A stretch of 32,000 bases of DNA from Desulfotalea psychrophila LSv54 (GCF_000025945.1 NC_006138.1:1200001-1232000), one strand, 5' to 3'; positions 691 through 17,809 are shown, counted from the stretch's first letter. Notes: generated by a model from the letters alone, not told the origin. A program made the numbers and translations.

Positions 691-1079
691 GAATCCTCCA
701 GGATCTTCTCTCTACGTCATAGCCTCACTAAGGGGCAACCATCCGTAGATCGTCGCCTTTTAGGTACATTTCTCGACCGCTCCCTTCCCTTGGTTGCGAC
801 ATTCTCTACCCATGTAGATATATTTTACCTATAAAACAGTGTTCTAGGGGCATTTGCCCCGGTGGAGTTTTTAAATCTCCTGGTCTGGTAGCTTAGGCAT
901 TGATTTTAGGTAATTATTGACCGCTTGAAATTCTTCCGTGCTAGGCATACAATGATTCTTATAATAAAAGACATGGGTGGAGGGAGTACCGTCTTGCGAG
1001 ATGTTGTGGGTGGAGGTTTCTGCGATCTATCCATTGCACTATGTTTAAGGTGCTGTTGCACTTATTGTACTCATTCAGC
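691..1079 (+). repeat. Copy A of the ORF-less TIR element family (left terminus lost, internal deletions, right TIR intact)
   Basis: Shares blocks with copies B-F: CCATCCGTAGATC (739-751), GTGTTCTAG, CGGTGGAGTTTTT, TGATTTTAGGTAATTAT, GGTGGAGGTTTC. Right TIR is CTGTTGCACTTATTGTAC (1053-1070), continuing to ..CAGC at 1079. Confidence 0.8.
925..953 (+). promoter_or_regulatory. Sigma70-like promoter motif inside copy A, pointing at the mscS-family gene
   Basis: TTGAAA (925-930), 17-nt spacer, TACAAT (948-953). The same motif sits at the same place in copies B, C, E and G. Confidence 0.4.
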
Positions 1080-1262
1080 CATTGAAGCATTTAACTCCCC
1101 TGAATAAGCTGAAAGAGTTTCATCAACTCAAACCAAATTTATTTAAGAAGCGACCAACCAATCGTCGGGAACCTAACATGTAAGTTTGTTCATTGCCTAT
1201 CTGGTGATGATTTTTGATCGCTACAACATGTTATGAGATGTTTTTATATAGGGGGCGTGTGG

Positions 1263-3923
1263 ATGAAGTGTAAACTGCTTTCGAATCGTTTTTCTAGGAT
1301 CATATGTGTCGTCAGCATCATTATGCTTGGTCTGTGGGGAGGTTCTCTCTATGCTGCGCAGGTATCGCAAAAATCTGATAATATAGTAGAAAAAGTTGTG
1401 GTGGAGGCAGCGAAAGATTCCTCGAAATCCGCTACATCGAGTCCACGTGCCACCCTACAGAATTTTCTTTCTGACGTTGATCGAGCTGTTGCTGATTGGC
1501 AACAAGGTATTCGTACCGAAGAGAGCGCTTGGGCATTTTTTCGTGCAACACAAATGCTTGATTTTGCTGGAGTTCCTGATAACGTCTCAGGAATTACTAA
1601 AATATCACGTATCCTTTTATTAAAAGATATCCTCGATCGGGTCAAGATCCCGGCAAGTGATCTGGTTCCCGGTGAGGCAGAAGTAGCTTCGAAAGATATT
1701 TCTACCTGGACCATTCCCGGAACACAAATAACTATTGCAAAGGTTGAGGATGGTTCCAAGGCAGGTGATTTTTTATTTTCCAAATATACCGTTGAAAATC
1801 TTGGCAGATTCCACCGGCAGATGGAGGATATACCTTACTCCTCTGGTGTCTCTTCCGGTTTATATGAACAGTTTAGAGATACTGCGCGTTCTAGTGACTA
1901 TTTTTCATCAAAAATTAGGATGCGCGATTTGTTACGAGGGGTTGATACATCAAGTCCTCGGTCAACCTTTGAGAGTTTTTTAAGTAATATCAATCAATCA
2001 TATTTATTTGTGCAGCAAGCAGAAAAAGGATTGCAGCAAACACCGCCCACTCTGACAATGGCAGAGGCTGAACAGCTTGAAGTGCGGGCTCATAACTACA
2101 TGAGACGAGCTATCTCCACACTTGATTTAAGCAATGTTCCAGAGGCACTACGGAGTAGTATTGCTATAGAGTCGACCTTACAGCTTAAGGAAGTTTTTGA
2201 TAGAATGATGTTGCCGGCTTTAGACTCAATCCCTGATCTTGAGATGGTTGAAGCAGCAAGGAAATTTGACAGTGAGGCCTTTATAGGCGGGGCAAAATCT
2301 TTACGTTGGAGATATCCGGACACAGAAATTGAGATTGTAGAGATTGGCGAAGGTAAGAGGCAGGGAGAGTTTCTATTTAGCGCTGATACGGTAAAAAACA
2401 TAGATGAAACATATCGTAAAGTAGAAGCTGTTCCGTACCGAACAACTACAACTGGGCCCAGGGAGAGTGAATATCAATTTCCCGGAACGTCTGATAACTT
2501 TTTCATCACCTACAGCTCAACACCTGGTTATCTTGTCACTCATACCAACTTTTTGAGTGGCTTGTATGACAGCTTTCCACCTTGGTTGAATATCATGTAC
2601 GGTGGACAGACGCTTTGGCAATGGTTTGCCCTCGTGTTCATTCTTGTTTTTACTTTTTTTGCAATTTATTTTACCTTTCGCGCTGTGAAAAGAGCTGTTA
2701 TGCCTCTCCATTCACCTAACCGTGATTGGATCAATCTTATTTCTCCGTTTATTGTGGCCCTTTTTCTTCCCTTTGTTGTGCACTTTATAGATAACGATCT
2801 TAAGATCACTGGTGTTATCGTTTCCACTGTGAAAACTGGTGGTGAATTTTTTGTTATCATCATGCTTGGCTGGGGTGCCATGCGCTTTGGTAAGGCGGTG
2901 TCGGAGACGATAGTAGCCTCTCCAAAAATTGATCCAGAAGGGATTCAGGCATCCTATACTCGGGCTGTATCAGGACTCTTTAGTTTTATTTTTGCTGCAG
3001 TTATAGTTTTTAACGGCCTTTCCCGTATTGGTGTCTCTATGATTCCAGTCCTTACTGGTTTGGGTGTCGGTGGTTTAGCATTTGGTTTGGCAGCACGGCC
3101 GACAATTGAGAACCTTATTGGTAGCTTTATGATATTTTTAGATAAACCGTGTCGGGTCGGTCAGCGGGTGAAGATTCTTTCCCACGACGGAACCGTTGAA
3201 TCCATTGGTCTTCGTTCAACTAAGATCAGACTGCTAAACGGTAATTTGACTGCAATTCCAAATGAAAAAATGGCTAATATGGAAATCGAAAATATTGGCC
3301 GCAGGCCGTATATCCGCAGATGTTTTAACATTACTCTGACCTACGATACTCCACCGGATAAAATCAAACAGTCAATTGATATTATTCGAGAAATTTTATC
3401 TGTTCCTGAGGATGGAATAATGGCCGGCGAATATGGTGTCTATTCTAGGGAAAGGAAGGTACATCCCAACGAAGCGATTAATCAACCGGACTATTTACCT
3501 CAGGTCTATTTTAATGATCTGAACGCAGATTCTCTCAATATAATTGTTTTTTATTGGTACCATCCTCCTCAGTATTGGGAGTATTTAGAACATTCTACCT
3601 GGGTCAACTTACAGCTCATGGAGCGATTTAATGCTGAAGGGATTGATTTTGCCTTCCCAACCCAAACACTATATGTGGCGGGCGATGATAAAAGACCACT
3701 TACCATTGGTCAGCGAGTGGTTACAGCTCAAAATCTTCAGCCACAGCAGGTGGGGAAAGTGTCTACGGTGTTGCAGTCCCATATGAAACAGGAGGAAACC
3801 GAGTTGGCGAGTGACGCCCTAAGGCCTGAAGACAGAGAGCCGTATCTTGAGCGGCAAAAAAAGCAGGAAGAGTTGGAGGCGGCTGAGGCCGAAGAAGGCG
3901 ATAAAGCAAAAGATAATAATTGA
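1263..3923 (+). CDS. Mechanosensitive ion channel family protein (MscS superfamily) with a large N-terminal periplasmic region
   Basis: Signal-peptide-like start MKCKLLSNRF.. at ATG 1263 (the ORF is open from 1233). Multiple TM segments, then the MscS core GLGVGGLAFGLAARPTIENLIGSFMIFLDKPCRVGQRV..IPN and an acidic C-terminal tail. Confidence 0.85.
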   Translation: MKCKLLSNRFSRIICVVSIIMLGLWGGSLYAAQVSQKSDNIVEKVVVEAAKDSSKSATSSPRATLQNFLSDVDRAVADWQQGIRTEESAWAFFRATQMLDFAGVPDNVSGITKISRILLLKDILDRVKIPASDLVPGEAEVASKDISTWTIPGTQITIAKVEDGSKAGDFLFSKYTVENLGRFHRQMEDIPYSSGVSSGLYEQFRDTARSSDYFSSKIRMRDLLRGVDTSSPRSTFESFLSNINQSYLFVQQAEKGLQQTPPTLTMAEAEQLEVRAHNYMRRAISTLDLSNVPEALRSSIAIESTLQLKEVFDRMMLPALDSIPDLEMVEAARKFDSEAFIGGAKSLRWRYPDTEIEIVEIGEGKRQGEFLFSADTVKNIDETYRKVEAVPYRTTTTGPRESEYQFPGTSDNFFITYSSTPGYLVTHTNFLSGLYDSFPPWLNIMYGGQTLWQWFALVFILVFTFFAIYFTFRAVKRAVMPLHSPNRDWINLISPFIVALFLPFVVHFIDNDLKITGVIVSTVKTGGEFFVIIMLGWGAMRFGKAVSETIVASPKIDPEGIQASYTRAVSGLFSFIFAAVIVFNGLSRIGVSMIPVLTGLGVGGLAFGLAARPTIENLIGSFMIFLDKPCRVGQRVKILSHDGTVESIGLRSTKIRLLNGNLTAIPNEKMANMEIENIGRRPYIRRCFNITLTYDTPPDKIKQSIDIIREILSVPEDGIMAGEYGVYSRERKVHPNEAINQPDYLPQVYFNDLNADSLNIIVFYWYHPPQYWEYLEHSTWVNLQLMERFNAEGIDFAFPTQTLYVAGDDKRPLTIGQRVVTAQNLQPQQVGKVSTVLQSHMKQEETELASDALRPEDREPYLERQKKQEELEAAEAEEGDKAKDNN

Positions 3924-4117
3924 AAAATCTGATTACCACCGAACTTCAGCCAATTTTAAAAGTTGTCTTGGCATAGTTGCTGTATTAATGGAAACTTTAA
4001 GGAGAGATTTAATCATCCCTTTTAGGTGGAATCTACGGTTAAAGCGTTAACATGTTAGATACCGTGGTAAATGTTTAGGGCGTATCGCATGGTATGCATC
4101 GTCAATGGCAGTTTTAA

Positions 4118-4693
4118 TGTTACGGAGCTGATGTAAAAGAATTCTATCCAAGGCACTCTTTTATTCTGGCAAGATTCTTCTTGTCTGCCCTCTGCGTGAT
4201 AGCTTCACTTAGGGACACCCTCTCCGTAGATCATTGCCTTGTCCTCAAGGTGGGCATATCGTTTGGCGTGGCCCATGTAGTTGTTAGATCAAGTTGCATT
4301 AAGCCGATGTTACAGCCTGTGAAATAGATTCATCCTAGGACCAATCTTTCCCGCAATGCCTTCCCGTGGTTGTCATATTTTCTACTTATGTAGACTGCTT
4401 CCAACCATAAAGCAGTGTTTTATGGATCTCTTGCTGATTTTTCTTTATTGCCTATGATGAGACCTAGGGGTGTTTGATCGGTGGAGTTTCTTGGCCTCCT
4501 GCTCTGGTAATTTGAAGTGTGATTTTAAGTGATTATGGATCGCTTGAGGGTTGTTTGGTGTTAGGGGTATAATGCTTTCTCTTACAAAAAGACATGTGGG
4601 GAGAGGGCGTATCGTCTTGCCAGATGTTGCGGGTGGAGGTTTCTGCCATCTACCCATTGTATTATGCTTAAGACGCTGTTGCACTTTTGCTTG
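4118..4693 (+). repeat. Copy B of the TIR element family (near full length, both termini degenerate)
   Basis: Collinear with copy E from GATGTAAAAGAATTC through CTCCGTAGATCATTGCC, GATCGGTGGAGTTTCTTGG, TTGAAGTGTGATTTTAAG and GGTGGAGGTTTC to a decayed right TIR CTGTTGCACTTTTGCTTG (4676-4693). Confidence 0.8.
4544..4573 (+). promoter_or_regulatory. Sigma70-like promoter motif inside copy B, pointing at ldtD
   Basis: TTGAGG (4544-4549), 18-nt spacer, TATAAT (4568-4573). Confidence 0.35.
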
Positions 4694-5026
4694 TGACTGT
4701 CGCATTAATCTTGATCATTTTTCTATCATCCTTAATATTACGAGGAGCAGGTCCTCCACAATAACGGGGAGAAGCACACTAAGGTTTTTCGTTAAGTGGC
4801 CGTCTTGTTTTTTGTGGTCTGCCAGATTATCATCTTGGGCAGAGTTACGGTCGAAGCCATTGTTTACACCCTTGGCCAGACCAGAAAAACCTTTATTCAT
4901 TCTCTGGCTGGTTTGCTACCTTGTCTATTATTTGAAATGTATTGAAAATTGTTCAAAAAAAACCAATGCAGTAGCCCAATACTTTTATGATTTGTATTCT
5001 GGGTATTAACCCGAGTTGGAATTCTT

Positions 5027-6712
5027 ATGTTCATTGATCGCCATCCCTTAACACTTTTTCTACGATTTCCTGCGGGGAAAATACTCTGTTATAGTCTGTT
5101 TTTTTTCCTGGCATCAATCACCGCCAGCAATAGTCGTCCGCTCGATACCGAACTCTCTCTGGCGCTGGAAGAATATCTGGGGTGTCTGCCGATAGAACTG
5201 ATACAGAATGACGGCCAACTTCCAATTTTGTCGACGGTAGATTTATGCCTAGCAAAAATCTATCATCAAACCGGGGCTCGCCCGCTCTGGGTGACCGTTG
5301 ATGGTCCCTCTGAAAAAGGCAAGATCATTCTCAAATACCTGACCGATTCCGATCAGCACGGCCTTGAACCTAATGCTTACAAACTCGAACGTTTACGGGA
5401 ACTTTGGTCAAGCAAAGGTGTCGATGAGTTGGCCGAGCTTGACATTTTATTGACCTACAACATCGTAAAATATGTGCATGACATTAGTTATGGCCGACTC
5501 AAACCCTTAGAGTCGGACCCTCAACTGTTCGCCGAGGCAGGAGACAAAGAATTTAACCCGCTTCGTGCCATCGAGCACCTTCTTGCCACGAGGGATCTTG
5601 ACAGGTTTCTTGCTGGCTTACCTCCTCAGCATCTTCATTACAAGGCACTTAAAACAGCTCTTGCATACTATCGTAACTTCGCTAAAAATGGTGACTGGCC
5701 TAAGGTGGCAATGGGAGTAAACCTGCACCCCGGCGATAGAGAGAAACGAATTATAAGCATCAGAAAAAGACTCCAGTTTGCAGGTCCTTTCCTGGAAGCC
5801 CCCCGAGACTCGGATTTAAGCCAATATGATCTCATCTTAGAAGAGGCCGTTCTGTCCTTTCAGCAGCTACATGGCCTGCAAACAGATGGGATTATAGGTA
5901 GAAATACCGTCGATGCCCTAAATATTTCGATTGCTGAAAAAATTGAAATTATTCGTCTGAATATGATGCGATGGCGATGGCAGGCACATGATCTGGGAAA
6001 ACGATATCTGCTCGTCAATATCGCCAGTTTTAATTTAAAGGCATTCCGCGACCAGGATGTAGTGCTGGACATGCCGATTATCGTCGGCACTGAGGAGAAC
6101 GAGACTCCGGTTTTCAGTGCCTGGATCAAATATATCGATTTCAACCCATTTTGGAATATTCCCACCAGTATCGCCCGCAATGAGATGTTACCAGCACTGC
6201 GGAAAAACAACTATTATCTCATTGATCAGCGTATTAGTCTGTTCTCTAATTGGCAGCAGAGTGCAGTCGAGCTCGACTCCACAGCTATCGACTGGGAGGC
6301 TATTACCCCGAGCGAAATCTCCGCCTATAAGCTCAGGCAGGATCCGGGTCCCTTGAATGCACTGGGGAGAATTAAATTTATCTTTCCTAATAGCTATTCC
6401 GTCTATATGCACGATACGCCTGGCCGTCATCTTTTTAGCCTAAGCAAAAGAAGCTTCAGTCACGGTTGTATTCGGGTGAGTGACCCCCTAAGCCTGGCCA
6501 TTTTCCTCCTTGAAAATCAGACAGATGGTTGGGATACTGAAAAAATTAAAGAAATATATGAGCAGGAGGAGCGTAAAGTGATTATCTTAACTCTTTCTGT
6601 TGCCGTTCATATAACGTATGGAACCGCCTGGGTTGACAAAGGCGGAGAGATCCATTTTAGTAGGGATATTTATTTGAGAGATGAGAGATTGCGTAACGCT
6701 CTTTTGAAATAA
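5027..6712 (+). CDS. ldtD: L,D-transpeptidase, YcbB/LdtD family
   Basis: 561 aa. Peptidoglycan-binding repeat (LQQLHGLQTDGIIGRNTVDALN) and YkuD catalytic motif SHGCIRV near the C-terminus. Followed by a ycbK-type gene, as in E. coli. Confidence 0.8.
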   Translation: MFIDRHPLTLFLRFPAGKILCYSLFFFLASITASNSRPLDTELSLALEEYLGCLPIELIQNDGQLPILSTVDLCLAKIYHQTGARPLWVTVDGPSEKGKIILKYLTDSDQHGLEPNAYKLERLRELWSSKGVDELAELDILLTYNIVKYVHDISYGRLKPLESDPQLFAEAGDKEFNPLRAIEHLLATRDLDRFLAGLPPQHLHYKALKTALAYYRNFAKNGDWPKVAMGVNLHPGDREKRIISIRKRLQFAGPFLEAPRDSDLSQYDLILEEAVLSFQQLHGLQTDGIIGRNTVDALNISIAEKIEIIRLNMMRWRWQAHDLGKRYLLVNIASFNLKAFRDQDVVLDMPIIVGTEENETPVFSAWIKYIDFNPFWNIPTSIARNEMLPALRKNNYYLIDQRISLFSNWQQSAVELDSTAIDWEAITPSEISAYKLRQDPGPLNALGRIKFIFPNSYSVYMHDTPGRHLFSLSKRSFSHGCIRVSDPLSLAIFLLENQTDGWDTEKIKEIYEQEERKVIILTLSVAVHITYGTAWVDKGGEIHFSRDIYLRDERLRNALLK

Positions 6713-6748
6713 TTTTTTACACCATATTACCTCAGACCTTAACATCAC

Positions 6749-7306
6749 ATGACCCAACCGAAAAAATTGCACTTGATGAATCGACGCCGATTACTGCTTA
6801 CAGCAGCCAAAATCGCGGCCGGATTGGTTATTGCCTCACCACTTGAACTTTTTGCCCGGTCCATTCCCGATAACAAGATTTCATTTTCCCATACACATAC
6901 CGGTGAATGCTTCGACTTGTGTGTTAACGATCGAGCATACAGTCCAGTTGTCAGGGAAAATCTTTTTTTCTTTCTCCGTGACTTTCGCACCAAGGAGGTG
7001 CATTCGATCGATTTTCGACTTATGGATATTCTCCTTAAAATCCGGCAAAAAACGGGTAGCACAGGTATTTACCAGGTTATATCCGGATACAGATCTCCAA
7101 ATACCAATAATTTGTTACGGGGCAAGAGCACTGGAGTCGCAAAAAAGAGTTTGCATCTGCAAGGCCGAGCCATTGACATTCGGCTTACGGATGTGCCTAC
7201 CAAAGAGCTTCGGGATGTTGCCTTATCTCTGAGAGCTGGTGGGGTCGGCTATTATGCCAAATCAGACTTTGTCCATATAGATACCGGTCATGTTCGTTCA
7301 TGGTAA
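6749..7306 (+). CDS. mepK: DUF882/peptidase M15A family protein (YcbK/MepK-like murein endopeptidase) with a Tat-type signal
   Basis: Twin-arginine leader MNRRRLLLTAAKIAAG.. (alternative start 6776). Conserved SGYRSP..N, HLQGRAIDI and VHIDTG motifs typical of YcbK. Confidence 0.8.
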   Translation: MTQPKKLHLMNRRRLLLTAAKIAAGLVIASPLELFARSIPDNKISFSHTHTGECFDLCVNDRAYSPVVRENLFFFLRDFRTKEVHSIDFRLMDILLKIRQKTGSTGIYQVISGYRSPNTNNLLRGKSTGVAKKSLHLQGRAIDIRLTDVPTKELRDVALSLRAGGVGYYAKSDFVHIDTGHVRSW

Positions 7307-7321
7307 CTGCTTAATTGTTTC

Positions 7322-7680
7322 ATATAGGTCGTTGCTTCACTAGGGGGCACACCATCCGTAGATCATCGCCTTATTGTTAAGATGAGCTGGTTATCCTGTT
7401 GGTATAATGACATAAAAGCTTCTGGATTTTGTAGAGGGTGGATTATATGATTTCCTGGCTAATAAACTTGCTGTAGACTCCTTTCAACCGTAAAACAGTG
7501 CTCTAGAGATTTCTTGCTAATTTCCTTTATCACCTATAATGAGATCTAGGGGCGCTTGGCCGGTAAGTTTTTTGGCCTCCTGTGCTGATAGTTTGGAGTG
7601 TGGTTTTGGCTGATTATGGATTGCTTGAAATTCTTTTCTGTTAGGGGCATAATCTTTTTGTAACAGAGGCCTGGGACGCT
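7322..7680 (+). repeat. Copy C of the TIR element family (both termini missing)
   Basis: Starts 15 nt after the mepK stop. Contains CACCATCCGTAGATCATCGCC (7350-7370), GTGCTCTAGAGATTTCTTGC and GGTTTTGGCTGATTATGGATTGCTTGAAATTC. It shares a middle variant (TATCCTGTTGGTATAATG.CATAAAAGCTTCTGG) with copy F. Confidence 0.8.
7625..7653 (+). promoter_or_regulatory. Sigma70-like promoter motif inside copy C, pointing at dgkA
   Basis: TTGAAA (7625-7630), 17-nt spacer, CATAAT (7648-7653). The dgkA start lies 220 nt downstream. Confidence 0.4.
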
Positions 7681-7872
7681 CAAAAAACATTGCGGGTCTT
7701 TTAGCCCCAAAATAAATAAGCTGAAAAAGGTTGGTTGGAATGTTGGCGACCAGGGCGGACGTCTTTTTGCCTAGTAAATCATCTGGGACCCAACAAATAG
7801 GCTTAGGTTTTAATGCTTATCTCGGGCTTTTCTTTGGCGGGTTTTTTTCTTCTACAAAGGAGTATAAATAGA

Positions 7873-8244
7873 ATGAAAGGAAATAGGGGATTCAAGCGGC
7901 TTGTTTTAGCCACATGTTATTCCTATAGAGGACTTTGTCAGGCATTTAGGCATGAAGCTGCCTTTCGCCAGGAACTTTTTCTGGTCGCTATTCTTCTTCC
8001 GCTGACCTACTGGTTTGAGGTTGAGCCTATCGAACGCTTATTGATGGGAGCCTCATTAATTCTTGTACTGATTGTTGAATTGTTAAACTCAGGAATTGAG
8101 GCCGTCGTTGATCGCATAAGTGAGGACTTTCATGAACTTTCTGGCCGGGCGAAAGACATTGGCTCAGCTGCCGTTTTTATGACATTCTTGCTAGCCGGCT
8201 ACGTCTGGGTATCGACTCTTTGGCCCTTGCTACCTTTACTCTGA
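7873..8244 (+). CDS. dgkA: Diacylglycerol kinase
   Basis: 123 aa from ATG 7873 (AAGGAG upstream), a length typical of DgkA. Matches the DgkA pattern GFKRL..A..YS..G..A...E.AFRQE, ..ELLNS.IE..VDR and three TM segments. The ORF is open from 7813. Confidence 0.85.
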   Translation: MKGNRGFKRLVLATCYSYRGLCQAFRHEAAFRQELFLVAILLPLTYWFEVEPIERLLMGASLILVLIVELLNSGIEAVVDRISEDFHELSGRAKDIGSAAVFMTFLLAGYVWVSTLWPLLPLL

Positions 8245-8395
8245 AATAAATGTATCGGCTTTTCTAAAGATAGGTCGCTGCCCATTAATGTCATACTACA
8301 AGACCATATCTAGGTTCGGGCTGATGCGAGGGAGGCAATTCGTGTGGTATGGGGTAAGGTGCGGAGACCCATCAATCACGACCGGCCATTGACCG

Positions 8396-8490
8396 GAAAC
8401 AAAAAAAGACACTCACAGGAAACCCCCATAAGTGCCTTTACCAGCGGTGGAGGTTGGGGCAAACCGTTGGTCTCTTGACTGTCAGGTGAC
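8396..8490 (-). pseudogene. Degenerate copy of the tRNA-Ala 3' two-thirds plus its downstream terminator tail
   Basis: GGTGGAGGT (8445-8453) equals tRNA positions 17735-17743. TGACTGTCAG (8475-8484) matches TGACTGCCAG in the anticodon arm. By hand, about 36 of 48 positions are identical. Downstream on the minus strand there is a 7-bp hairpin (8407-8413/8429-8435) and the GAAAC-A6-G tail, compared with GAAAC-A7-G at 17682-17694. Confidence 0.55.
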
Positions 8491-8492
8491 TG

Positions 8493-8860
8493 GAATTCTT
8501 GTATGAATTTGATTTAAATCGATGTTGTAGCTTGCAAAATAGATTCATCCCTGGACCAATCTTTCCCGTAATACTCTCCCTCGCTTGCCACATTTTCTAC
8601 TCCTGTAGATCTATTTTGCCTATAAAATAGTGTTCTAGAGATCTCTTGCTAGTTTCCTTTATCGCCTGGGTAGACTTTTCGGATGGGGTCGCTTGAGCGG
8701 TGGAGTTTTTTCTGTCTCTCGTTTTGGCATTTTGAAGTGTGATTTTAGGTAATTATGGAATTCTTGCTCTTTCTTTGCCGTTAGGATGTTGATAGTTTCT
8801 ATTGATGGGGTGGTCGCGCAAATAAGGTTTTTTTGTACTGAATGTTGCACTTATTGCTTG
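8493..8860 (+). repeat. Copy D of the TIR element family (right two-thirds; promoter motif disrupted)
   Basis: Collinear with copy E from GGAATTCTTG.. through GTAGCTTGCAAAA, GTGTTCTAGAGATCTCTTGCTAGTTTCCTTTATCGCCTGGGTAGAC, CGGTGGAGTTTTTT and TTGAAGTGTGATTTTAGG to a decayed right TIR TGTTGCACTTATTGCTTG (8843-8860). A short left-arm match ATAGGTCGCTGC lies at 8270-8281. Confidence 0.8.
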
Positions 8861-9013
8861 AGATCAATCTTTGCCTTTCTTTTTTTTGTTAAAACGCCCT
8901 TGCTTTTGCTGGTGATTTGCGACAGGTTTCAATCCTAACATAAGCTCGGTAGGGGGAGGCCTCTACTGTTTGTATTTTTTAAGGTGCTGTCTAACAGCCA
9001 AGAAGGAGTAGGT

Positions 9014-10339
9014 ATGAAAAAGATTATGGTAGGTTTTGTGGCACTTCTCGTTGTTGCAGGAGTCTGCGCCCCATTTATTAACGGACTTGTCATGGAGAAA
9101 ATGGTTACACAGTCTCAAGATGATCTGAATAAAATGTATGTAGATACCGGTTCAGACATGGCTGTTGAGGTTATCAAATATGACAGAAAGTTTTCTTCAT
9201 CAGAGATCGAGTGGAAGATTAAATTGGGAAGTCTTGCCGCAATATATGGTGTTGATGAAATCATATTTGTAGATCGGGCAGATCATGGCTTTACTGGTGT
9301 TGTGTCTAAAACCAGCCTTGAGAAGAATCGATGGTTTGTCGATTTGTTAGATGATAAATTTGATGGAAAAAACCCTTTGACCATAACGACTACATATAGA
9401 TTAGGAAGGAAAATTGAGTCGGTAATTGACATTGGTTCTTTTACCTTGCAACTGGGAAATGAGTCTGTTGCTTCCCTGCCGGGAAGGATTGTCTCTGAAT
9501 ATGATGTGGGTTTGACACATTGGATAAGTGAAGCAACGTGGGCAGGATTTTCTGTGCCGGGTAAGGTCAGTATGGGTGGTTTTTCCCTCGGGTGCGATTT
9601 GGAGAAAATTTCTACTTATATTTGGGATGGTGATCTCTCATATGAAATTAAAGATATCAAGGTTGAGGGCAAGAAGGGAAATTTTGAACTTGTAAATTTT
9701 GCAGTTCAATACACTCTGGGTTATGACAAAAATAAAAACATGTTATCCATGGGTGGAGAGATTGAAATTGCTAGCATTGCTGTAGCAAACCAGAAAGTAA
9801 AAGATGCAGTTATTAAATTAGCTATAAACAATATAGATGCTCAGAGTTACGAAGAATTTATGAAGATATACACCCAGACGATTGCTTCTACTCTGGACGA
9901 TATCTCTCTAAAAAAAGAAAGTTCTGAAGGGATGGATGAAGCTCTGAAGCAAGAGATGGCCACCGCTGGTATTCAGATGATGGCGGCATGCGAGAAATTC
10001 TTAAAAAAGGGATTGGAGCTAAAAATTTCAGACCTGCATGTTCAACTTCCGGAGGGGCGAATTTCTGGTAATGCAGGATTGATATTAAATAAGGACGTTA
10101 CTTTTGCACAATTGGCCCCCATCGTCATCCAACCTAACTTGGCATTTGATATTTTTTCCCTGCAATCCGATTTTAGTATTCCTGCAGAACTTATTAGCGA
10201 TAAGAGCAAGCTTGTCTCACCAGTATTCCCGGGAATGCAGACTGGCCTGTTTGTGATAGACGGAGAAAATTTGGTCCACAGGACACAAACTAAAAATGGA
10301 AAACTGCTCTTAAACGGAAATGAAATGCTCTTCCATTAA
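9014..10339 (+). CDS. YdgA-like (DUF945) family protein, secreted or membrane-anchored
   Basis: AGGAG RBS then ATG 9014. N-terminal signal/anchor MKKIMVGFVALLVVAGVCAP. Size, repeat-like beta-rich composition and the C-terminal ..NGKLLLNGNEM.. resemble E. coli YdgA. Confidence 0.55.
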   Translation: MKKIMVGFVALLVVAGVCAPFINGLVMEKMVTQSQDDLNKMYVDTGSDMAVEVIKYDRKFSSSEIEWKIKLGSLAAIYGVDEIIFVDRADHGFTGVVSKTSLEKNRWFVDLLDDKFDGKNPLTITTTYRLGRKIESVIDIGSFTLQLGNESVASLPGRIVSEYDVGLTHWISEATWAGFSVPGKVSMGGFSLGCDLEKISTYIWDGDLSYEIKDIKVEGKKGNFELVNFAVQYTLGYDKNKNMLSMGGEIEIASIAVANQKVKDAVIKLAINNIDAQSYEEFMKIYTQTIASTLDDISLKKESSEGMDEALKQEMATAGIQMMAACEKFLKKGLELKISDLHVQLPEGRISGNAGLILNKDVTFAQLAPIVIQPNLAFDIFSLQSDFSIPAELISDKSKLVSPVFPGMQTGLFVIDGENLVHRTQTKNGKLLLNGNEMLFH

Positions 10340-10516
10340 GAACCAACAGTGGGGTCGGGATGCCAAAATGTGGAAAAGCTCACTCTTGTAATAATGGGGG
10401 TTATTCCAACAACTCAGATCTATATGATAAATTCAATTCACACTAATCAAGAGGGAAGTTTCCTCAATAATAGATTGGCATCACGATCAGAGAGTTAGCC
10501 ATGGAAAGGAAATAAT

Positions 10517-11161
10517 ATGACACTGAAGAAATCAAATATGGTATGCAATGTAACTTCATTAATACCAAATAATGAAATATTTGGCGTGAGTGGGAGTCCT
10601 AGAAAAAATGGGAATTCAGATATATTACTGAAAAGCATAATTTCAGGAGTAGATTCTGAAAATATAGTATCAACTTGCTGTAATTTAACAGATATTCAAT
10701 TTCAGGGATGTATAGGATGTGAAAAGTGTAGAAAAGATAAAATATGTACAGGGTTGCTTGATGGTATGTCACTTATTTATGATTCAATAATTTCATCAAA
10801 AGGGCTTGTAGTTGTCTCGCCTACCCACAACTATAATATCACCTCATGGATGAAGGCGTTTATTGATCGTCTATATTGCTTCTACAACTTCGAAAATGAT
10901 CGTCCAAGAAGTTGGTCTAGTCAATTGGCAGGACAAGGTAGAAAAGCCGTGATAGTAGCAATATGTGAACAAAAAACTAAAGATGATATGGGCTTTACTC
11001 TTGAAGCAATGAGAAAACCTCTCGAAGCACTTGGCTATGAGATAGTTGGCGAACTTTCTATCTTCAGAATATTTGACAAAGGCAAAGTTAAACAAGATCA
11101 AGAAGCTATAGAAAAAGGACGTGAACTCGGTATAAGGTTAGCGAAATCAATCAGAGAATGA
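10517..11161 (+). CDS. Flavodoxin-fold NAD(P)H-dependent FMN reductase / iron-sulfur flavoprotein-like
   Basis: GVSGSPRKNGNSDILL FMN-reductase N-terminal motif, a Cys cluster CIGCEKCRKDKIC, and SPTHNYNITSWMKAFIDR. A sampled 60-nt line here has about 35% G+C. Confidence 0.65.
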   Translation: MTLKKSNMVCNVTSLIPNNEIFGVSGSPRKNGNSDILLKSIISGVDSENIVSTCCNLTDIQFQGCIGCEKCRKDKICTGLLDGMSLIYDSIISSKGLVVVSPTHNYNITSWMKAFIDRLYCFYNFENDRPRSWSSQLAGQGRKAVIVAICEQKTKDDMGFTLEAMRKPLEALGYEIVGELSIFRIFDKGKVKQDQEAIEKGRELGIRLAKSIRE

Positions 11162-11187
11162 GTTGTATATTCCAGTAGTAAAATTTA

Positions 11188-11221
11188 GCTGGATTAGTGC
11201 CACAAGCTGCTTGAACTCAGC
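11188..11221. repeat. Copy I: 34-nt relic holding only the two termini of the TIR element
   Basis: GCTGGATTAGT + GCCACAAGCTGCTT matches the left end of copy F (GCTGGATTAGTACAATAAGTGCAACAAACTGCTT) with a 9-nt gap. It then runs directly into the right-terminal AACTCAGC. Confidence 0.45.
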
Positions 11222-11379
11222 CTTGGTCGTCAGAAACCATTTAATCTTGTCATTCTGACATATAAAGATATCTCCTATGTACCCGAAAAGACGAGTTTAA
11301 GATAATTTGACTTTGGAAACGCCAGGAAAGCCAACGGGAGATATTCTCTCCCTGTTGAGTGAAGCGTGAGGTTTGGCAC

Positions 11380-11775
11380 ATGATAATACTAAGTATACAA
11401 GAGTATGATGGCTTATCAGAATTTGAACTGTTTTTGAATAAAGTTTCTGGCAAACTCGCAGCTTCTATATGTAAAAAATTTCATGCCTATACTGAACTTA
11501 ATGACATTTATAGTTGCAATAGTTTGAAAATTCTGAAACCTAAGATATGGGGTTATAAAGGTACTATTTATAAGCTTCGGGTAGATTGTGGTAAAGAATC
11601 AGCACGAGTGCTGTTTGTAAAAATGGCAAATGACAACATTGTACTATTGCATGGGTTTGTGAAAAAAACTAGAAAAACACCGAGTAAGGATGCAAAAATT
11701 GCGATGGCTAATCTCGAGCGACTAAAAAATAATGTAGAAGTAACTGAATTACCATTAACAAAGTATTCGTTCTAA
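11380..11775 (+). CDS. Type II toxin, RelE/ParE superfamily, phage Gp49-like (HigB-type)
   Basis: IYKLRVDCGKESARVLFVKMANDNIVLLHGFVKKTRKTPSKD matches the Gp49/DUF891 signature (..YELR....YR.LF....IVLLHGF.KKT.KTP). No HTH antitoxin ORF lies on either side. Confidence 0.65.
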   Translation: MIILSIQEYDGLSEFELFLNKVSGKLAASICKKFHAYTELNDIYSCNSLKILKPKIWGYKGTIYKLRVDCGKESARVLFVKMANDNIVLLHGFVKKTRKTPSKDAKIAMANLERLKNNVEVTELPLTKYSF

Positions 11776-11784
11776 TCGTTCGGA

Positions 11785-11880
11785 TTCTGGCAAGCTCAAT
11801 GATTTTGGCTGATTATGGATTACTTGAAATTTTTTTGTGTTGGGGGCATAATGCTTTTTGTGATAAAAGGCATGGAATGC
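11785..11880 (+). repeat. Copy G: ~95-nt fragment of the TIR element (promoter block only)
   Basis: GATTTTGGCTGATTATGGATTACTTGAAATTTTTTTGTGTTGGGGGCATAATGCTTTTTGTGATAAAAGGCATGG is nearly collinear with copy C 7608-7675. Confidence 0.75.
11824..11852 (+). promoter_or_regulatory. Sigma70-like promoter motif inside copy G, pointing at the HD-domain gene
   Basis: TTGAAA (11824-11829), 17-nt spacer, CATAAT (11847-11852). Confidence 0.4.
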
Positions 11881-11975
11881 ATTCGTATTATTAGAATTTC
11901 GGATGCCAGGTAATCGTCTATAGTCCTGGCAACCAGAGAGGTTTTGCCTCGGTTGTTTTTTATTTATTTGTTAAT

Positions 11976-12859
11976 ATGTACTTTCCTTCAAGTATTCATT
12001 ATATCAGAGAATTCTCTGTTTTTTGGCCAGTGAAGGGTAAAGAAGAGATAAGAGCACAATCAACCGCAATAACTCAGGAGAAAACTGTGCAAGAAAAAGA
12101 ATATGATAATCTCAGAACATGGTTTCTTAAATATACAGATAGTTTTTTAGATTATCCTGAAGCTGATATTGAAAATATTCTTCTTAAAAAAGAGCATACA
12201 TTAAGAGTTTGCCAGGAAATGGAGCTCATTTCAAAAGAGCTTTCTCCTGAAGATAAAATTCTTGCTCTGACTGTGGCTCTCTTACATGATGTAGGCCGGT
12301 TTGATCAGCTTAGAATTTACAGAACTTTTTCTGATTTTAAGTCGGAAGATCATGCTTCATTAGGTGTGAAAATCTTAAAGGAACTGGATTTATTAAAAGA
12401 CCTTGATCCTGTGGACGTTGAATTAATTTTCTTTGCTGTAGAAAATCATAACAAGCCTGAAATTGTTCCTGACTGTTCTTTTCAAACTGAAACAATTACT
12501 AAACTTTTGAGAGATGCAGATAAACTCGATATTTGGCATGTTGTAATCGATTATTACAAGGTCGGTGGAGAATATGATAATCCATCGCTTGTTCACAATC
12601 TTCCTTTCGGTGATGATGTCTGTGCCTCTGTATTTCAGGCTATAGAGAAAAGGGATATCATCTCCTATGATTTATTGGAGACTGTAGTAGATATAAAGAT
12701 TTTTAAATGGGCTGGATTTATCATCTTAACACCAGGAAAGCTCTTGAGCTGGCCTCAGAAAGATCTTATCTTGAAAGTATATTTAATACCTTGCCGCAAA
12801 CTGAACGTATTACCAAAATTTATAATAATATGCAGGCGTATCTTGTGGAGAAATATTAA
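11976..12859 (+). CDS. HD-domain phosphohydrolase, apparently frameshifted near 12707-12722
   Basis: HD motifs H..LRV, LLHDVGR, EDHA, ENHN and DADKLD. The better start is GTG 12087, after AGGAG. After ..DIKIFKWAGF the listed frame turns low-complexity and runs into repeat F. The +2 frame instead reads IYHLNTRKALELASERSYLESIFNTLPQTERITKIYNNMQAYLVEKY and stops at 12857-12859. Confidence 0.65.
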
Positions 12860-12873
12860 GTATAAGCAAAGGC

Positions 12874-13090
12874 GCTGGATTAGTACAATAAGTGCAACAA
12901 ACTGCTTAGGGGGTAAAAGAATTCTACCCAAGTACTTTGCACCTTGGCAAGACTCTTTTTGTGCCCTTACTCTATAGCCTCACTAAGGGCACTTCATCCG
13001 TAGATCATCGTCTTGTCTCCAAGATGAGAGAACGTATCCTGTTGGTATAATGCCATAAAAGCTTCTGGCTCTCGTAGAGACTGGAGCCAT
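12874..13090 (+). repeat. Copy F: left third of the TIR element (left TIR intact)
   Basis: GCTGGATTAGTACAATAAGTGCAACAAAC (12874-12902), a hairpin block (12915-12960) and TTCATCCGTAGATCATCGTC (12993-13012), followed by the C-type middle variant. Homology ends near 13090. Confidence 0.8.
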
Positions 13091-13363
13091 TGTTAGCAAC
13101 GATTGGCAAGTCTGTCGGAGATCGTGAATTCGTAGATGCTCAAGGCCTGCCAGGGAACGAACATTGCGGAAGAACTTTCACCATATTCTTGCTAGATCAT
13201 GAAGGTTTCTTTGAGCAGGAAGCCGATGAGCGAGAGTTGGTTTATTGCAAAAACTCCTTTAACGAAGACGCCACAATATCGGTGGAGGATCAACTGTCGC
13301 CGGACTAACCCAGACACACACTGCTGCAACAACCAGAACTGTGAAGTATGCCTCACAACTGGC

Positions 13364-13609
13364 TTAAACTATCGATGTATTTGTTTCCTCTAAGCACTTA
13401 TCACAGATGACTCGCTCAGGATTGATTTTTAGAATACTAAATGGAATTTCCTGTTTGCAGATAAAGCATTCTCCAAAGTTCTCGGCATTAATTCGAGCTA
13501 AAGCCGTAGTTAGTCGCTGTACTTGCAGATCATTTACAGGCGATTTCATCTGTTCCAAGAGACTTGTCTTGATCACAGTAAGTTGTTGTTTATTCATTTG
13601 ATCAACCAT
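13364..13609 (-). CDS. TraR/DksA-family C4 zinc-finger protein
   Basis: 81 aa with C-X2-C...C-X2-C (CFICKQEIPFSILKINPERVICDKC) at the C-terminus after a helical N-terminal part. This is the typical small phage/plasmid TraR layout. Confidence 0.6.
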   Translation of the reverse strand: MVDQMNKQQLTVIKTSLLEQMKSPVNDLQVQRLTTALARINAENFGECFICKQEIPFSILKINPERVICDKCLEETNTSIV

Positions 13610-13897
13610 TCTATTAAAATTTAAAACATCTTTAATTGCGTATCATGTTGCAGTCTTCGAGCCATGTCACAGACTGACGTGACTTCTTCAAAATCATTCG
13701 AAGAATGTCGTGTTGTCTGCCAAGCGCTGGAGTCTAACATATCATTCTGTATCACTACAGAAAGCGTTAAGAAAGTCGGTAATAAGGGCAGGAGTTGCTA
13801 GGCTATAGTGGTATATGTATTACGTATAATATATATATACGGTCAAAAGCGTTACCGCAAAAGAGATAAGGCGTCCCCAGGATTTTGTTACAGTCAA

Positions 13898-13917
13898 ACA
13901 ATAAGTGCAACAAACTG
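13898..13917 (+). repeat. Copy H: solitary left-TIR fragment
   Basis: ACAATAAGTGCAACAAACTG is identical 20/20 to copy F 12885-12904. It is not followed by the rest of the left arm. Confidence 0.7.
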
Positions 13918-13931
13918 TGTTGGTGTTGATA

Positions 13932-13941
13932 GGGGGGGGGG
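13932..13941. repeat. Poly-G homopolymer (G10)
   Basis: Ten consecutive G residues lie between the solitary TIR (copy H) and the left end of copy E. Confidence 0.9.
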
Positions 13942-14001
13942 ATTGTTTGGGTGATCGCTGGAGTAGTACAGTAAGTGCAACAGGCTACTTAGAGATGATG
14001 T

Positions 14002-14051
14002 AAAAAGAATCCTGCCCAAGCATCTCTGCACCTAGGCAAGATTCTTTTTTT
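14002..14051 (+). terminator. Terminator-like hairpin in the left arm of copy E
   Basis: AAAAAGAATCCTGCC (14002-14016) pairs with GGCAAGATTCTTTTT (14035-14049), with one mismatch. A T7 run follows on the plus strand and a T5 run on the minus strand. Equivalent but weaker hairpins occur in F (12915-12960) and B (4136-4180). Confidence 0.4.
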
Positions 14052-14119
14052 GTTCCCCTACGCCATAGCCTCCACCATGGGGCACACCATCCGTAGCATC
14101 AAGCATCGCCTTCTCTTCA

Positions 14120-14147
14120 AGGTAAGTGGGGTCGAACCGCTGACTCC
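14120..14147 (-). other. tRNA-Ala-like fragment (variable loop, T-arm, start of acceptor) embedded in copy E
   Basis: AGGTAAGTGGGGTCGAACCGCTGACTCC matches tRNA-Ala 17740-17767 (AGGTAAGCGGGATCGAACCGCTGACCTC) at 24/28 positions, on the same strand as the real tRNA. Confidence 0.6.
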
Positions 14148-14430
14148 CCCCCTTGGAATTGTTAGATAAAATTGCTTTAAGCCGTTGCCGTAGCTTGCAA
14201 AAGTGCACCTTTCCCAAGATGAACCTGTTTGTCCCGTAATATCTCCTTCCTGCCATATGCTCCATTCCTGTAGGCTCCTTTCAGCCAGAAAATGGTGTTT
14301 TAGAGATCTCTTGCCAGTTTCCTTTATCACCTGGGTAGACTTTTGGGCTAGGGGTGCTTGACCGGTGGAGTTTTTTGGTCTCTTGTTCTGATGCTTTGGA
14401 GTGTGATTTTGGCTCATTATTGGTTTTCTC

Positions 14431-14459
14431 TTGAAGTCATTTTATGTTAGGGGCATAGT
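14431..14459 (+). promoter_or_regulatory. Sigma70-like promoter motif inside copy E, pointing at the DUF6499-type gene
   Basis: TTGAAG (14431-14436), 17-nt spacer, CATAGT (14454-14459). The downstream ORF starts at 14683 after AAGGAGG. Confidence 0.35.
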
Positions 14460-14682
14460 GCTTCTTGTAACAAAGGACATGGGCGAAGGGCGTACCGTCT
14501 TGCGAGAAGCTGTGGTGGAGGTTTCCGTGACCTACTCACTACACGCAGCATCATGTTTAAACCGCTGTTGCACTTATTGTACTAACTCAGCAGTAATTGA
14601 GCTAGGTTACAGTAGTAGTCTAAAAAACAGTAACTTGAATAGATGCTCCAGTGCTTTTTATTGACTCTAAGGAGGCTCAAAA

Positions 14683-15651
14683 ATGATACAAGAAGTCCCT
14701 GAATGGCTCCCTGATTGGAGAAACAAAGAAGAGTACCCAAACCCAAAAAAAACGCCCCCCCAGCAGTGGGCATGGGAATTTTTGCGAAGGAACGTCGATT
14801 ATAGAAAAGAGTACAAAGAACTAATACAGATATCTCCTGAGGTTTTTGGGCAAAAAAAGCATCTTGAGTCCCTCACTGCTGACAAACAAAATAGCTTGCG
14901 AGAGAGCAGGGCAAACTTCACAAAAAAATATTATGGTAAAGAATTACACTATGTAATCGACCCCAAAGAAAAAATTCCTTGGGATAAGGATTTCTTTTTT
15001 CTCGATATAAACAGAAGAAGGGAAGGGCGTTATGTCTTGCGTGGAGGATGTTTGACTCCGCAAAGACAAGAAGCCAAAGATACTAATGAATTTTGGAACC
15101 AAGACATGAATGATCCTTCCATGCTCTGGGAGCTATGTGAGGGAGCAAGCCATTCCTTTAGTAACATGTTATATTTCCTTGAGGAAAACACTGCAAGTAG
15201 CCAGTATTACTACTTGTCTAGAAAAGTTATAAAGAGTGACATAGCGTACATAGGCGAGCATTCGACTAAAATATCAACACAGCCCCATGAAGCAATTTTC
15301 ACCATTAACCTCGACGGTGAGATCAACCGACAGCTAGAGAAAATTAAAAAAATTGCAAACAAACTCCAACAAAACCTCCCTAAGCCCTCTAGCATAACGA
15401 GAGCGAATCTTGTCTCCGGATTCATAGACTATTTAAGAACTTATGATGCTATATTATCCATGGGTGGCCCTCAGGGCGTGGTGAAATCTGAAGTGGCAAG
15501 AGAACTCTATGGGGAGTTTCGTTACGAAGATCCAAATTACAAAACCAACCTTGAAAGAGTCACGGACAACTTCGATTCTGCTAAGAAACTTATCGAAGGT
15601 AAGTACTTGAGGATAGCCCAAAAGCTCTCGTCAAAACGCCTGCCTTCATGA
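14683..15651 (+). CDS. DUF6499-type (WAWEFLRRN motif) putative mobile-element regulator
   Basis: Strong RBS AAGGAGG 7 nt upstream of the ATG. The N-terminal PQQWAWEFLRRNVDYRKEY is the hallmark of DUF6499 / FseA-N-type transcriptional regulator domain proteins. The rest (about 270 aa) I do not recognise. Confidence 0.6.
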   Translation: MIQEVPEWLPDWRNKEEYPNPKKTPPQQWAWEFLRRNVDYRKEYKELIQISPEVFGQKKHLESLTADKQNSLRESRANFTKKYYGKELHYVIDPKEKIPWDKDFFFLDINRRREGRYVLRGGCLTPQRQEAKDTNEFWNQDMNDPSMLWELCEGASHSFSNMLYFLEENTASSQYYYLSRKVIKSDIAYIGEHSTKISTQPHEAIFTINLDGEINRQLEKIKKIANKLQQNLPKPSSITRANLVSGFIDYLRTYDAILSMGGPQGVVKSEVARELYGEFRYEDPNYKTNLERVTDNFDSAKKLIEGKYLRIAQKLSSKRLPS

Positions 15652-17682: not shown

Positions 17683-17724
17683 AAACAAAAAAAGGGTCTT
17701 AGAGAAAAAATTCTCTAAGACCCT
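17683..17724 (-). terminator. Rho-independent terminator of tRNA-Ala
   Basis: Perfect 14-bp stem (17693-17706 / 17711-17724) with a 4-nt loop, followed on the minus strand by TTTTTTTGTTT. Confidence 0.85.
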
Positions 17725-17733
17725 TTGCAATGG

Positions 17734-17809
17734 TGGTGGAGGTAAGCGGGATCGAACCGCTGACCTCGTGACTGCCAGTCACGCGCTCTCCCAGCTGAGC
17801 TATACCCCC
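17734..17809 (-). tRNA. tRNA-Ala(GGC): tRNA-Ala (anticodon GGC)
   Basis: The hand-folded 76-nt cloverleaf is GGGGGTA-TA-GCTC-AGCTGGGA-GAGC-G-CGTGA-CTGGCAG-TCACG-AGGTC-AGCGG-TTCGATC-CCGCT-TACCTCC-ACCA. It has the G3:U70 alanine identity pair and an encoded CCA. Confidence 0.9.

Follow-up and report, generated by a model that had tools for sequence, protein, structure and literature searches.

The repeat copies and their gene context

We analysed a 32,000-nt stretch of the genome of Desulfotalea psychrophila LSv54 (GCF_000025945.1, NC_006138.1:1200001-1232000; hereafter the window, with positions counted from its first letter), the first 14.6 kb of which hold several copies of a non-coding repeated element of about 0.6 kb. 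The copies lie in a region (1-17.7 kb) of mostly plus-strand genes of unrelated functions with a G+C content of 36-44%, which encode a rhodanese-domain protein, an MscS-type channel, a YkuD L,D-transpeptidase, a DUF882 peptidase, a diacylglycerol kinase, a DUF945 protein (8984-10339), an FMN reductase, a Gp49/HigB-like toxin, an HD-domain protein and a DUF6499/DUF2285 regulator. An intact tRNA-Ala(GGC) gene on the minus strand (17734-17809), with its own terminator at 17691-17726, stands at the boundary between this low-GC variable region and a core block running from mreBCD-pbp2-rodA to polA, in which the G+C content is 44-51%. The GC skew was positive throughout the window, so that the plus strand is probably the leading strand.

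The repeat family was recovered by a blastn search of one copy (E) against the window, by a repeat finder, by a MAFFT alignment and by an nhmmer profile with the filters off, and all four agreed. Internal sequence was present in seven copies (A, B, C, D, G, F, and E), and two relics of ends (H and I) were found besides. All nine lie on the plus strand and within 14.6 kb, and the nhmmer family profile detected no further copy on either strand in the remainder of the 32 kb, including the 17.8-32 kb part. The initial annotation had described co-oriented copies, absent from 17.8-32 kb, of an element that is bounded by a terminal inverted repeat (TIR), lacks an open reading frame (ORF) and is conserved at the DNA level; the profile search on both strands bore out the first part within the window, and blastn, nhmmer and tests of reading frame and periodicity bore out the second. 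The recovered copies were 60-77% identical, with a pairwise identity of 60-71% over the aligned blocks, and the repeat finder showed that identity locally reaches 88% in the pairs C/G and C/F.

Copy E (13957-14591) is 635 bp long and is, as first annotated, the sole copy with both ends intact; its 27-nt terminal inverted repeats (13957-13983 and 14565-14591) match at 23 of 27 positions. Copy B (about 4106-4702) is nearly full length (~597 bp), with a left repeat that is merely degenerate and a right repeat of the right-end (IRR) type. Most copies are truncated, and the sizes of the truncated ones range from 35 to 400 bp. Copy A (679-1079) is without its left repeat, has an internal deletion corresponding to about positions 152-262 of E and ends in a right repeat (1053-1079) of the left-end (IRL) type, whereas copy D (8491-8866) begins at about position 198 of E and ends in a relic of an IRR-type right repeat (8843-8866). 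Copy C (7322-7680) is without both ends and has a middle segment common only to F (88% over 51 nt). Fragment G (11783-11905) corresponds to positions ~430-570 of E and is 88% identical to C, and copy F (12874-13091) consists of the left terminal repeat, the left arm and the C-type middle. Relic I (11188-11222), as a direct reading against F and E showed, consists of a left end from which 9 nt are deleted, fused to a right end of which the last 8 nt are left, and relic H (13886-13922) is a left end alone that stops 35 nt short of E; a run of ten G (13933-13942) lies between H and E. Left ends are therefore present in F, H, I and, in degenerate form, B, and right ends, besides that of E, in A, B, and D; read directly, the right end is of the IRR type in B and D and of the IRL type in E and A.

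Eight of the ten gaps between neighbouring protein genes up to position 14683 were occupied by copies, so that the earlier statement that almost every intergenic gap is filled held for these eight and failed for the two empty ones (6712-6749 and 10339-10517). The claim that copies hug the upstream stop codon stood for C, G, and I, at distances of 16, about 8 and 27 nt, respectively, but not for D, which begins 247 nt past the stop of the upstream gene, nor for F, which lies partly inside the HD-domain ORF at 11976-12977. C and G are close to stop codons because their left ends were lost, that is, by deletion and not by choice of insertion site; the position close to the 3' ends of genes arises from truncated copies. 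The HD-domain ORF extends 104 nt into F through its left terminal repeat; the last 34 codons of this ORF are element-derived, which indicates that the 3' end of the gene was replaced by the insertion.

Two genes of kinds often seen on mobile elements were observed in the low-GC stretch, the Gp49/HigB-like toxin gene (11359-11775), without a visible antitoxin partner, and the DUF6499 and DUF2285 regulator gene (14683-15651). The sole clear minus-strand ORF of this stretch is a small one with a CxxC...CxxC motif (13364-13609) and no Pfam match.

Coding capacity of the element

No reading frame was open across the copies, and substitutions showed no 3-base periodicity, the mismatches being even over the three phases (p = 0.26-0.96). 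Between 7 and 9 of the 10 to 16 insertions and deletions per copy pair were not multiples of three. ORFs inside the copies had no Pfam match, and tblastn with the IS30-family transposase of related genera revealed no transposase similarity in the window, as the initial annotation had reported from inspection. The absence of transposase similarity, open frame, periodicity and Pfam match rules out a protein-coding relic.

Two proteins from public collections lie wholly inside copies: P0121, a 119-aa ORF in E (14058-14417, minus strand) annotated as 'unknown protein' in LSv54, and P0242, a MetaClust entry in C (7520-7699, minus strand). Searches of 5.8 billion and 1.84 billion proteins, respectively, yielded no homologue of either, and both are probably spurious gene calls. 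The ORF at 4551-5009, which starts inside B, gave an implausible translation without a Pfam match and was not counted as a gene.

The terminal repeat and a related IS30-family element

The pattern GCTG-N4-AGTACA-N-TAAGTGCAACA, which occurs four times in the window, gave 33 exact matches in GTDB contigs (one genome per species), nearly all of them in Desulfocapsaceae: Desulforhopalus vacuolatus (12 matches), Desulfosediminicola flagellatus, Desulfopila and Desulfotalea sp. NORP6. The sequence to the left of GCTG varied from locus to locus in these relatives, which shows GCTG to be the true terminus. To the right of the pattern, the relatives carry a 327-aa ORF with HTH_38 and rve domains, which bears the NCBI name 'IS30 family transposase', and relatives of this transposase adjoin the pattern in most loci. 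The right end of this parent insertion sequence (IS) reads TGTTGCACTTATTACTTGAAT(C/T)CAGC and includes the transposase stop codon. Bounded copies of the IS were 1081-1086 bp long, and three of five were flanked by a 2-bp target duplication, which is a hallmark of IS30.

The search for an autonomous element with the same TIR, which the initial annotation had proposed, thus yielded an IS30-family IS with its transposase in related genera, not in LSv54. The HTH_38 and rve DDE transposase is present in the elements of the relatives and absent from the window, where terminal repeats of the 20-30 nt usual for IS30 are present and none of the copies has a 2-bp duplication. The suggestion that the repeats go beyond a MITE (miniature inverted-repeat transposable element) is not upheld, given that an ordinary IS carries this terminal repeat together with a transposase. 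The window elements and the parent IS have only about 27-34 nt in common at either end, and the interior of E had no match in any of the 37 loci of the relatives. Because only the terminal inverted repeats are common to the two, the window family is a type II MITE in the usage of PMC10969869, longer than the usual limit of <500 bp.

Internally deleted derivatives of the IS were observed in the relatives (176, 411, and 664 bp, at L015 6717-6892, L009 241-651 and the contig end of L012, respectively). They retain the two ends together with remnants of the transposase gene and are type I MITE-like, unlike the type II elements of the window; the parent IS thus readily spawns non-autonomous forms. 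At three loci of D. vacuolatus (L001, L014, and L025), the left end of the IS lies ~80 nt from an ORF of ~805 aa, of the same kind each time and on the opposite strand, which points to a larger unit repeated in that genome or to a target favoured there. This IS end or close relatives of the transposase were also seen in records L009, L011, L017, and L033 and in P0173, P0179, and P0230, labelled as Candidatus Roizmanbacteria, Photobacterium, Draconibacterium, Gammaproteobacteria, Shewanella benthica and Thiolinea; these records would be accounted for by broad horizontal spread between marine bacteria or else by contaminated metagenome-assembled genomes.

Distribution of the family

Two internal patterns, which together match six of the seven sizeable copies in the window, were used for searches outside it. 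Both had no match in JGI metagenomes and one also had none in IMG/VR, in which the TIR pattern likewise gave no match; E and the parent IS had none among the PLSDB plasmids. The 119-aa ORF of E, used as a proxy query, matched only itself, and a profile of minus-frame translations matched only the ORF in C and one unrelated repeat protein. As far as these proxy and pattern searches, which are not a census, can indicate, the family is lineage-specific and possibly low-copy.

The closest homologues of the DUF945 protein (83, 76, and 65% identity) were located in different neighbourhoods with no element nearby. On a JGI metagenome contig (L035 1920-3918), the 76%-identical homologue is followed by two tyrosine recombinase genes. 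With four neighbourhoods in four relatives, the DUF945 gene behaves as a mobile accessory gene.

Promoter-like and terminator-like signals

Sigma-70-like sites were found on the plus strand at a homologous position in copies A (925-953; TTGAAA, 17 nt, TACAAT), B (4544-4573; TTGAGG, 18 nt, TATAAT), C (7625-7653; TTGAAA, 17 nt, CATAAT), and G (11824-11852; TTGAAA, 17 nt, CATAAT). Each matches the consensus at 10 of 12 positions, and in our consensus scan of 18 kb all four ranked in the top nine across both strands. The site in E (14432-14460, plus strand; TTGAAG, 17 nt, CATAGT) is weaker, and the hexamers of D are degenerate. The sites lie about 130-165 nt from the right end of the element and point outward to the downstream plus-strand gene, which is 124-454 nt away (280 nt for the site in A, before the MscS-type gene that starts at 1233; 160 nt for that in C, before the diacylglycerol kinase gene; 223 nt for that in E, before the gene at 14683). 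Judged from sequence, promoter activity of the element is plausible.

A terminator-like hairpin was found in the left arm of E (14001-14055, plus strand), in which an A-tract precedes a ~14-pair stem that is followed by seven T (-18.9 kcal/mol, z = -2.47); a similar hairpin with five T is present in F and a weaker one in B. Conservation was flat along the element. Its best-conserved block, GTGTTCTAGAGATCTCTTGC.AGTTTCCTTTATC (0.82 identity; 14302-14311 in E and the corresponding sites of C and D), holds a perfect palindrome, AGAGATCTCT, which could be a protein-binding site.

Transposition and the uniform orientation of the copies

The alignment showed that similarity between the copies stops exactly at the tips of the element (seen at the left ends of E and F and at the right ends of E and A). 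Neither the flanks nor the genes that separate the copies are related, and H lies beside E as though E had landed in or next to an older copy. These three observations favour transposition over segmental duplication. The divergence and truncation of the copies and the lack of an LSv54 transposase among the 120 best transposase relatives suggest that the copies are now immobile fossils.

The chance that nine independent events would all point one way is ~0.4%. The parent IS, when compared with its upstream neighbour in the relatives, was co-oriented in 14 cases and opposite in 14 by a crude ORF-based count, which indicates that the orientation bias is not a gene-relative property of the transposase. 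Given that the copies are parallel and that nearly all local genes are on the plus strand, agreement between copies and genes is a one-in-two outcome. For the parallel arrangement of the copies, the biology of IS30 offers an ordinary candidate explanation. IS30 inserts into hot spots or beside its own inverted repeats (IRs), giving 'exclusively IRL-IRR junctions', and IS30 dimers fuse with target DNA to form cointegrates with directly oriented copies (PMC9333248).

We consider it probable, though far from certain, that the window holds a lineage-specific family of type II MITEs with IS30 ends that was moved in trans, is now fossil and owes its orientation to IS30 chemistry. The copies would have been moved by an IS30-family DDE transposase recognising their 26-27-nt ends. 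Insertion next to a resident end would then create only head-to-tail IRL-IRR junctions, while dimer and cointegrate products would place directly oriented copies around captured DNA, and a series of such local, end-targeted events would leave parallel copies with unrelated DNA between them. The uniform orientation would thus, most simply, be a by-product of IS30-type chemistry. The directional terminator-like and promoter signals may add selection against the opposite orientation; selection of this kind is the main alternative and would be compatible with IS30 chemistry.

Several results weigh against this account. No target duplication was found at E (flanks TC and AG), at I (TA and CT) or at the single ends of A and F. 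Such duplications are usually lost with age (PMC10969869) and none are made by IR-targeted IS30 events (PMC9333248), so that their absence from the window copies fits old age or IR-targeted insertion. No autonomous partner in LSv54 was present among the 120 best relatives of the transposase (at least 58% identity). The window contains no abutted IRR-IRL junction, H and E being two left ends in tandem. ORF-based searches detected no copies outside the window, and a family that may be local is not predicted by the transposon model alone. E and B exceed the size of <500 bp expected of a MITE, a criterion that is conventional and not mechanistic. The tRNA-Ala-like pieces in E and beside D, described below, are unexplained by simple transposition. 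As for the directional signals, the 12 promoter hexamer columns had a conservation of 0.82 compared with 0.80 for their neighbours, a value reached by 35% of random 12-column sets, and a weak terminator-like hairpin (11938-11950) lies between the promoter of G and the next ORF. With hexamer columns no better kept than their neighbours, selection on the promoter was undetectable.

In the alternative that fares best, selection would maintain the element as a portable terminator-promoter module, the left-arm hairpin of which stops upstream transcription and the own sigma-70 promoter of which restarts it, so that only co-directional insertions survive and later deletions spare the promoter block. 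We regard this combination as possible but rather unlikely. The matching positions of the sites in A, B, C and G and of the weaker one in E, each before the next plus-strand gene, speak for it, as do the T-runs that follow the left-arm hairpin in E and F. More copies (six of nine) retain the promoter block than any other part, and G contains little else, while F, the sole sizeable copy without it, has no close downstream plus-strand gene. No inherent bias in orientation was seen for the parent IS, and Correia, MITEAba12 and QMITE1 are known promoter-bearing MITEs (PMC10969869). Besides the lack of excess conservation of the hexamers, however, those of D are degenerate although a gene follows D, the implied 5' leaders are long, and the consensus scan gave 51 promoter-like sites in the region compared with 38 +/- 7 in shuffles, which is a modest excess.

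tRNA-Ala pieces, gene capture and site-specific recombination

Two pieces of tRNA-Ala(GGC) were found among the copies, both on the minus strand and in the orientation of the intact gene. The first, inside E (14120-14144), matches 23 of 25 nt of the T-arm and the 3' strand of the acceptor stem, a score that none of 1000 shuffles reached, and is 3.6 kb away from the intact gene; a run of seven C (14145-14153) comes right after it. The second (8389-8485) directly abuts D and consists of the decayed 3' two-thirds of the tRNA and a terminator of 16 pairs (8439-8405). Its local alignment score was 65, compared with 16.8 +/- 2.6 for shuffles (0 of 500 as high), and the stems of its terminator, though not the same as in the intact copy, still pair. 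Both pieces are direct repeats of the 3' part of a tRNA, as is expected of a tRNA-associated island.

No recognisable counterpart of the patch in E was present in the other copies. At the homologous places in B, C, and F, tRNA likeness was not significant, and a tRNA fragment ancestral to every copy is unsupported for these three. A second motif resembling a tRNA end, 'GGTGGAGGT', in the right arm was marginal (p about 0.02-0.09). Targeting of tRNA genes by the parent IS was also rejected, since a tRNA gene was present at only one of the 33 TIR loci (L021), where it lies ~2.6 kb from the IS. In A, in C and F, and in D, the breakpoints of rearrangement all fall at positions 150-190 of E. No tyrosine recombinase or integrase was found in the window, including beside the tRNA gene or att-like sites. 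From their sequences, the two pieces look like the outcome of recombination between element copies and a tRNA-Ala locus, whether homologous or integrase-mediated.

These pieces enter into two further explanations. The first is a gene-capture array, in which a non-autonomous element of the IS30 type, as head-to-tail dimers, would undergo repeated fusion with foreign circular DNA, the tRNA-Ala-like core possibly serving as a second recombination site, to give an integron-like string of unrelated co-oriented genes with one terminator- and promoter-supplying copy between each. If true, this would be a transposase-built analogue of an integron, but the evidence does not favour it and we judge the combined proposal improbable.

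The second, which appears quite improbable to us, is an array of recombination sites, in which the units would be attP-like, with the 3' part of tRNA-Ala as their core, cassettes would have integrated serially at tRNA-Ala and the IS30 ends would be secondary. The match in E and its orientation fit this proposal, as do the attL-like position of the decayed tRNA and terminator against D, the breakpoints common to A, C and F, and D, and the low G+C content of the region. The Gp49 toxin and the DUF6499/DUF2285 regulator are of kinds common on mobile elements, and the neighbours of the DUF945 homologues are wholly different in relatives and in one case include two tyrosine recombinase genes. Against it stand the absence of an integrase from the window, the lack of significant tRNA likeness in B, C, and F, and the intact tRNA-Ala gene itself, which is flanked by its own terminator and by no arm of the element. 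Moreover, the units are bounded by bona fide IS30 ends at which homology stops, and G and F flank one gene without a common crossover point.

RNA structure and local duplication

The initial annotation had also raised the idea of a conserved RNA. The only Rfam match over threshold in the window was tRNA-Ala, and lenient scans of E, B and the 1-18 kb region gave chance-level matches, so that a group II intron or other known RNA has no Rfam support. Full-length E folded somewhat better than its shuffles (z = -2.85), largely through pairing of the terminal repeats, and B had a z of -1.95, whereas in none of five copies did the conserved core fold better than shuffled sequence (z from -0.42 to +1.59); a stable RNA fold of the core was thus undetectable in single copies.

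RNAalifold on the five copies gave -10.5 kcal/mol over 232 columns with 10 compensatory pairs on the plus strand, compared with -5.6 kcal/mol and 3 pairs on the minus strand. Shuffles had 5.5 +/- 1.4 compensatory pairs (1 of 500 as high) and slid controls 2-3. A long-range helix between positions 14281-14293 and 14408-14418 of E changes from AGCCA:TGGCT in E and C to TACCTA:TAGGTA in A and D. The core might accordingly be read as a cis-acting domain (an element of a 3' or 5' untranslated region, or a small RNA) transcribed with the genes, which would explain the strand of the copies and would draw on the excess of compensatory pairs over both controls, the better score of the plus strand and the compensatory change of the helix. 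We consider this very improbable. Single-copy cores fold like shuffles, the covariation term is only -0.35 kcal/mol, and the fold was derived from the same five sequences, which makes the test partly circular. The compensatory states may reflect one split between subfamilies, there is no Rfam match, and conservation is flat along the element. The idea of a conserved RNA is therefore weak, its sole compensatory long-range helix resting on five sequences.

Local segmental duplication of an intergenic spacer without transposition is hardly credible: it agrees with the confinement of all copies to 14.6 kb in one orientation, with the absence of any trace of them elsewhere in the ORF-based searches and with the lack of target duplications, but homology ends exactly at the terminal repeats, these ends are those of a known family of transposable elements, the flanks and intervening genes are unrelated, and H adjoins E as in a nested insertion.

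Comparison with known systems

The repeats of the window are a real, old and decaying MITE-like family derived from IS30 in D. psychrophila, which belongs to a class already known and is new as a family. MITEs are known to carry promoters, to occur as truncated copies, to lose their direct repeats as they age and to cluster, and a 2024 MITE review makes no mention of the IS30 family (PMC10969869). IS30-derived MITEs are hardly described, and the present family appears specific to one psychrophilic sulfate reducer. Its uniform orientation has ordinary candidate explanations and offers a small test case of two ideas, that head-to-tail targeting of the IS30 type shapes local gene order and that a mobile element serves as a terminator-promoter spacer ready for use. 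For annotation, at least two 'unknown protein' entries (P0121 and P0242) are probably spurious and the 3' end of ORF 11976-12977 is element-derived.

Comparison with the IS30-family IS of Desulfocapsaceae, represented by a 1084-bp copy in Desulfosediminicola flagellatus (L021 3390-4473, transposase P0122), showed that the terminal sequence GCTGGAGTAGTACAATAAGTGCAACA is identical and that the window copies have both IRL- and IRR-type ends, with a 26-27-nt repeat typical of IS30. The window element differs in its length (635 compared with ~1085 bp), in being without transposase-derived sequence and without a 2-bp duplication, and in its unrelated interior, which was found only in LSv54.

Type II MITEs such as Correia/NEMIS of Neisseria, QMITE1/2 of Coxiella, MITEAba12 of Acinetobacter and Chunjie of Geobacter are likewise ORF-less, bounded by TIRs and similar to their parent at the ends only. 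They are also intergenic and clustered, are often truncated with loss of their repeats and carry an internal sigma-70-like promoter, and the overlap of one window copy with the end of an ORF has its counterpart among them (PMC10969869, PMC3184786). The window family departs from them in its size (~0.6 kb compared with 100-400 bp), in having no strong overall transcript hairpin beyond its paired ends, in its IS30-family parent and in the single orientation of all its local copies.

Products of IS30 dimers, IR targeting and cointegrate formation (PMC9333248) resemble the window in that directly oriented copies flank unrelated DNA and that H lies beside E, and IR-targeted events also leave no target duplications. 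Those products were obtained with intact IS30 on plasmids and the chromosome of Escherichia coli, however, whereas the window elements are non-autonomous and ancient and show no IRL-IRR junction with a 2-bp spacer.

The resemblance to integron cassette arrays lies in the succession of unrelated co-oriented genes, each followed by a repeated non-coding site. Unlike such arrays, the window has no intI gene and no attC-like imperfect palindrome of 57-141 bp, and its repeats, of 0.1-0.6 kb, have DDE-transposon ends and are cut at varied points instead of at one crossover. Clusters of the pneumococcal BOX, RUP and SPRITE repeats (PMC10969869) are, like the copies described here, non-coding mobile repeats bunched between genes, some of them nested and one type terminator-like; the window differs from these in that its repeats form one family only, have IS30 ends and come from another phylum.

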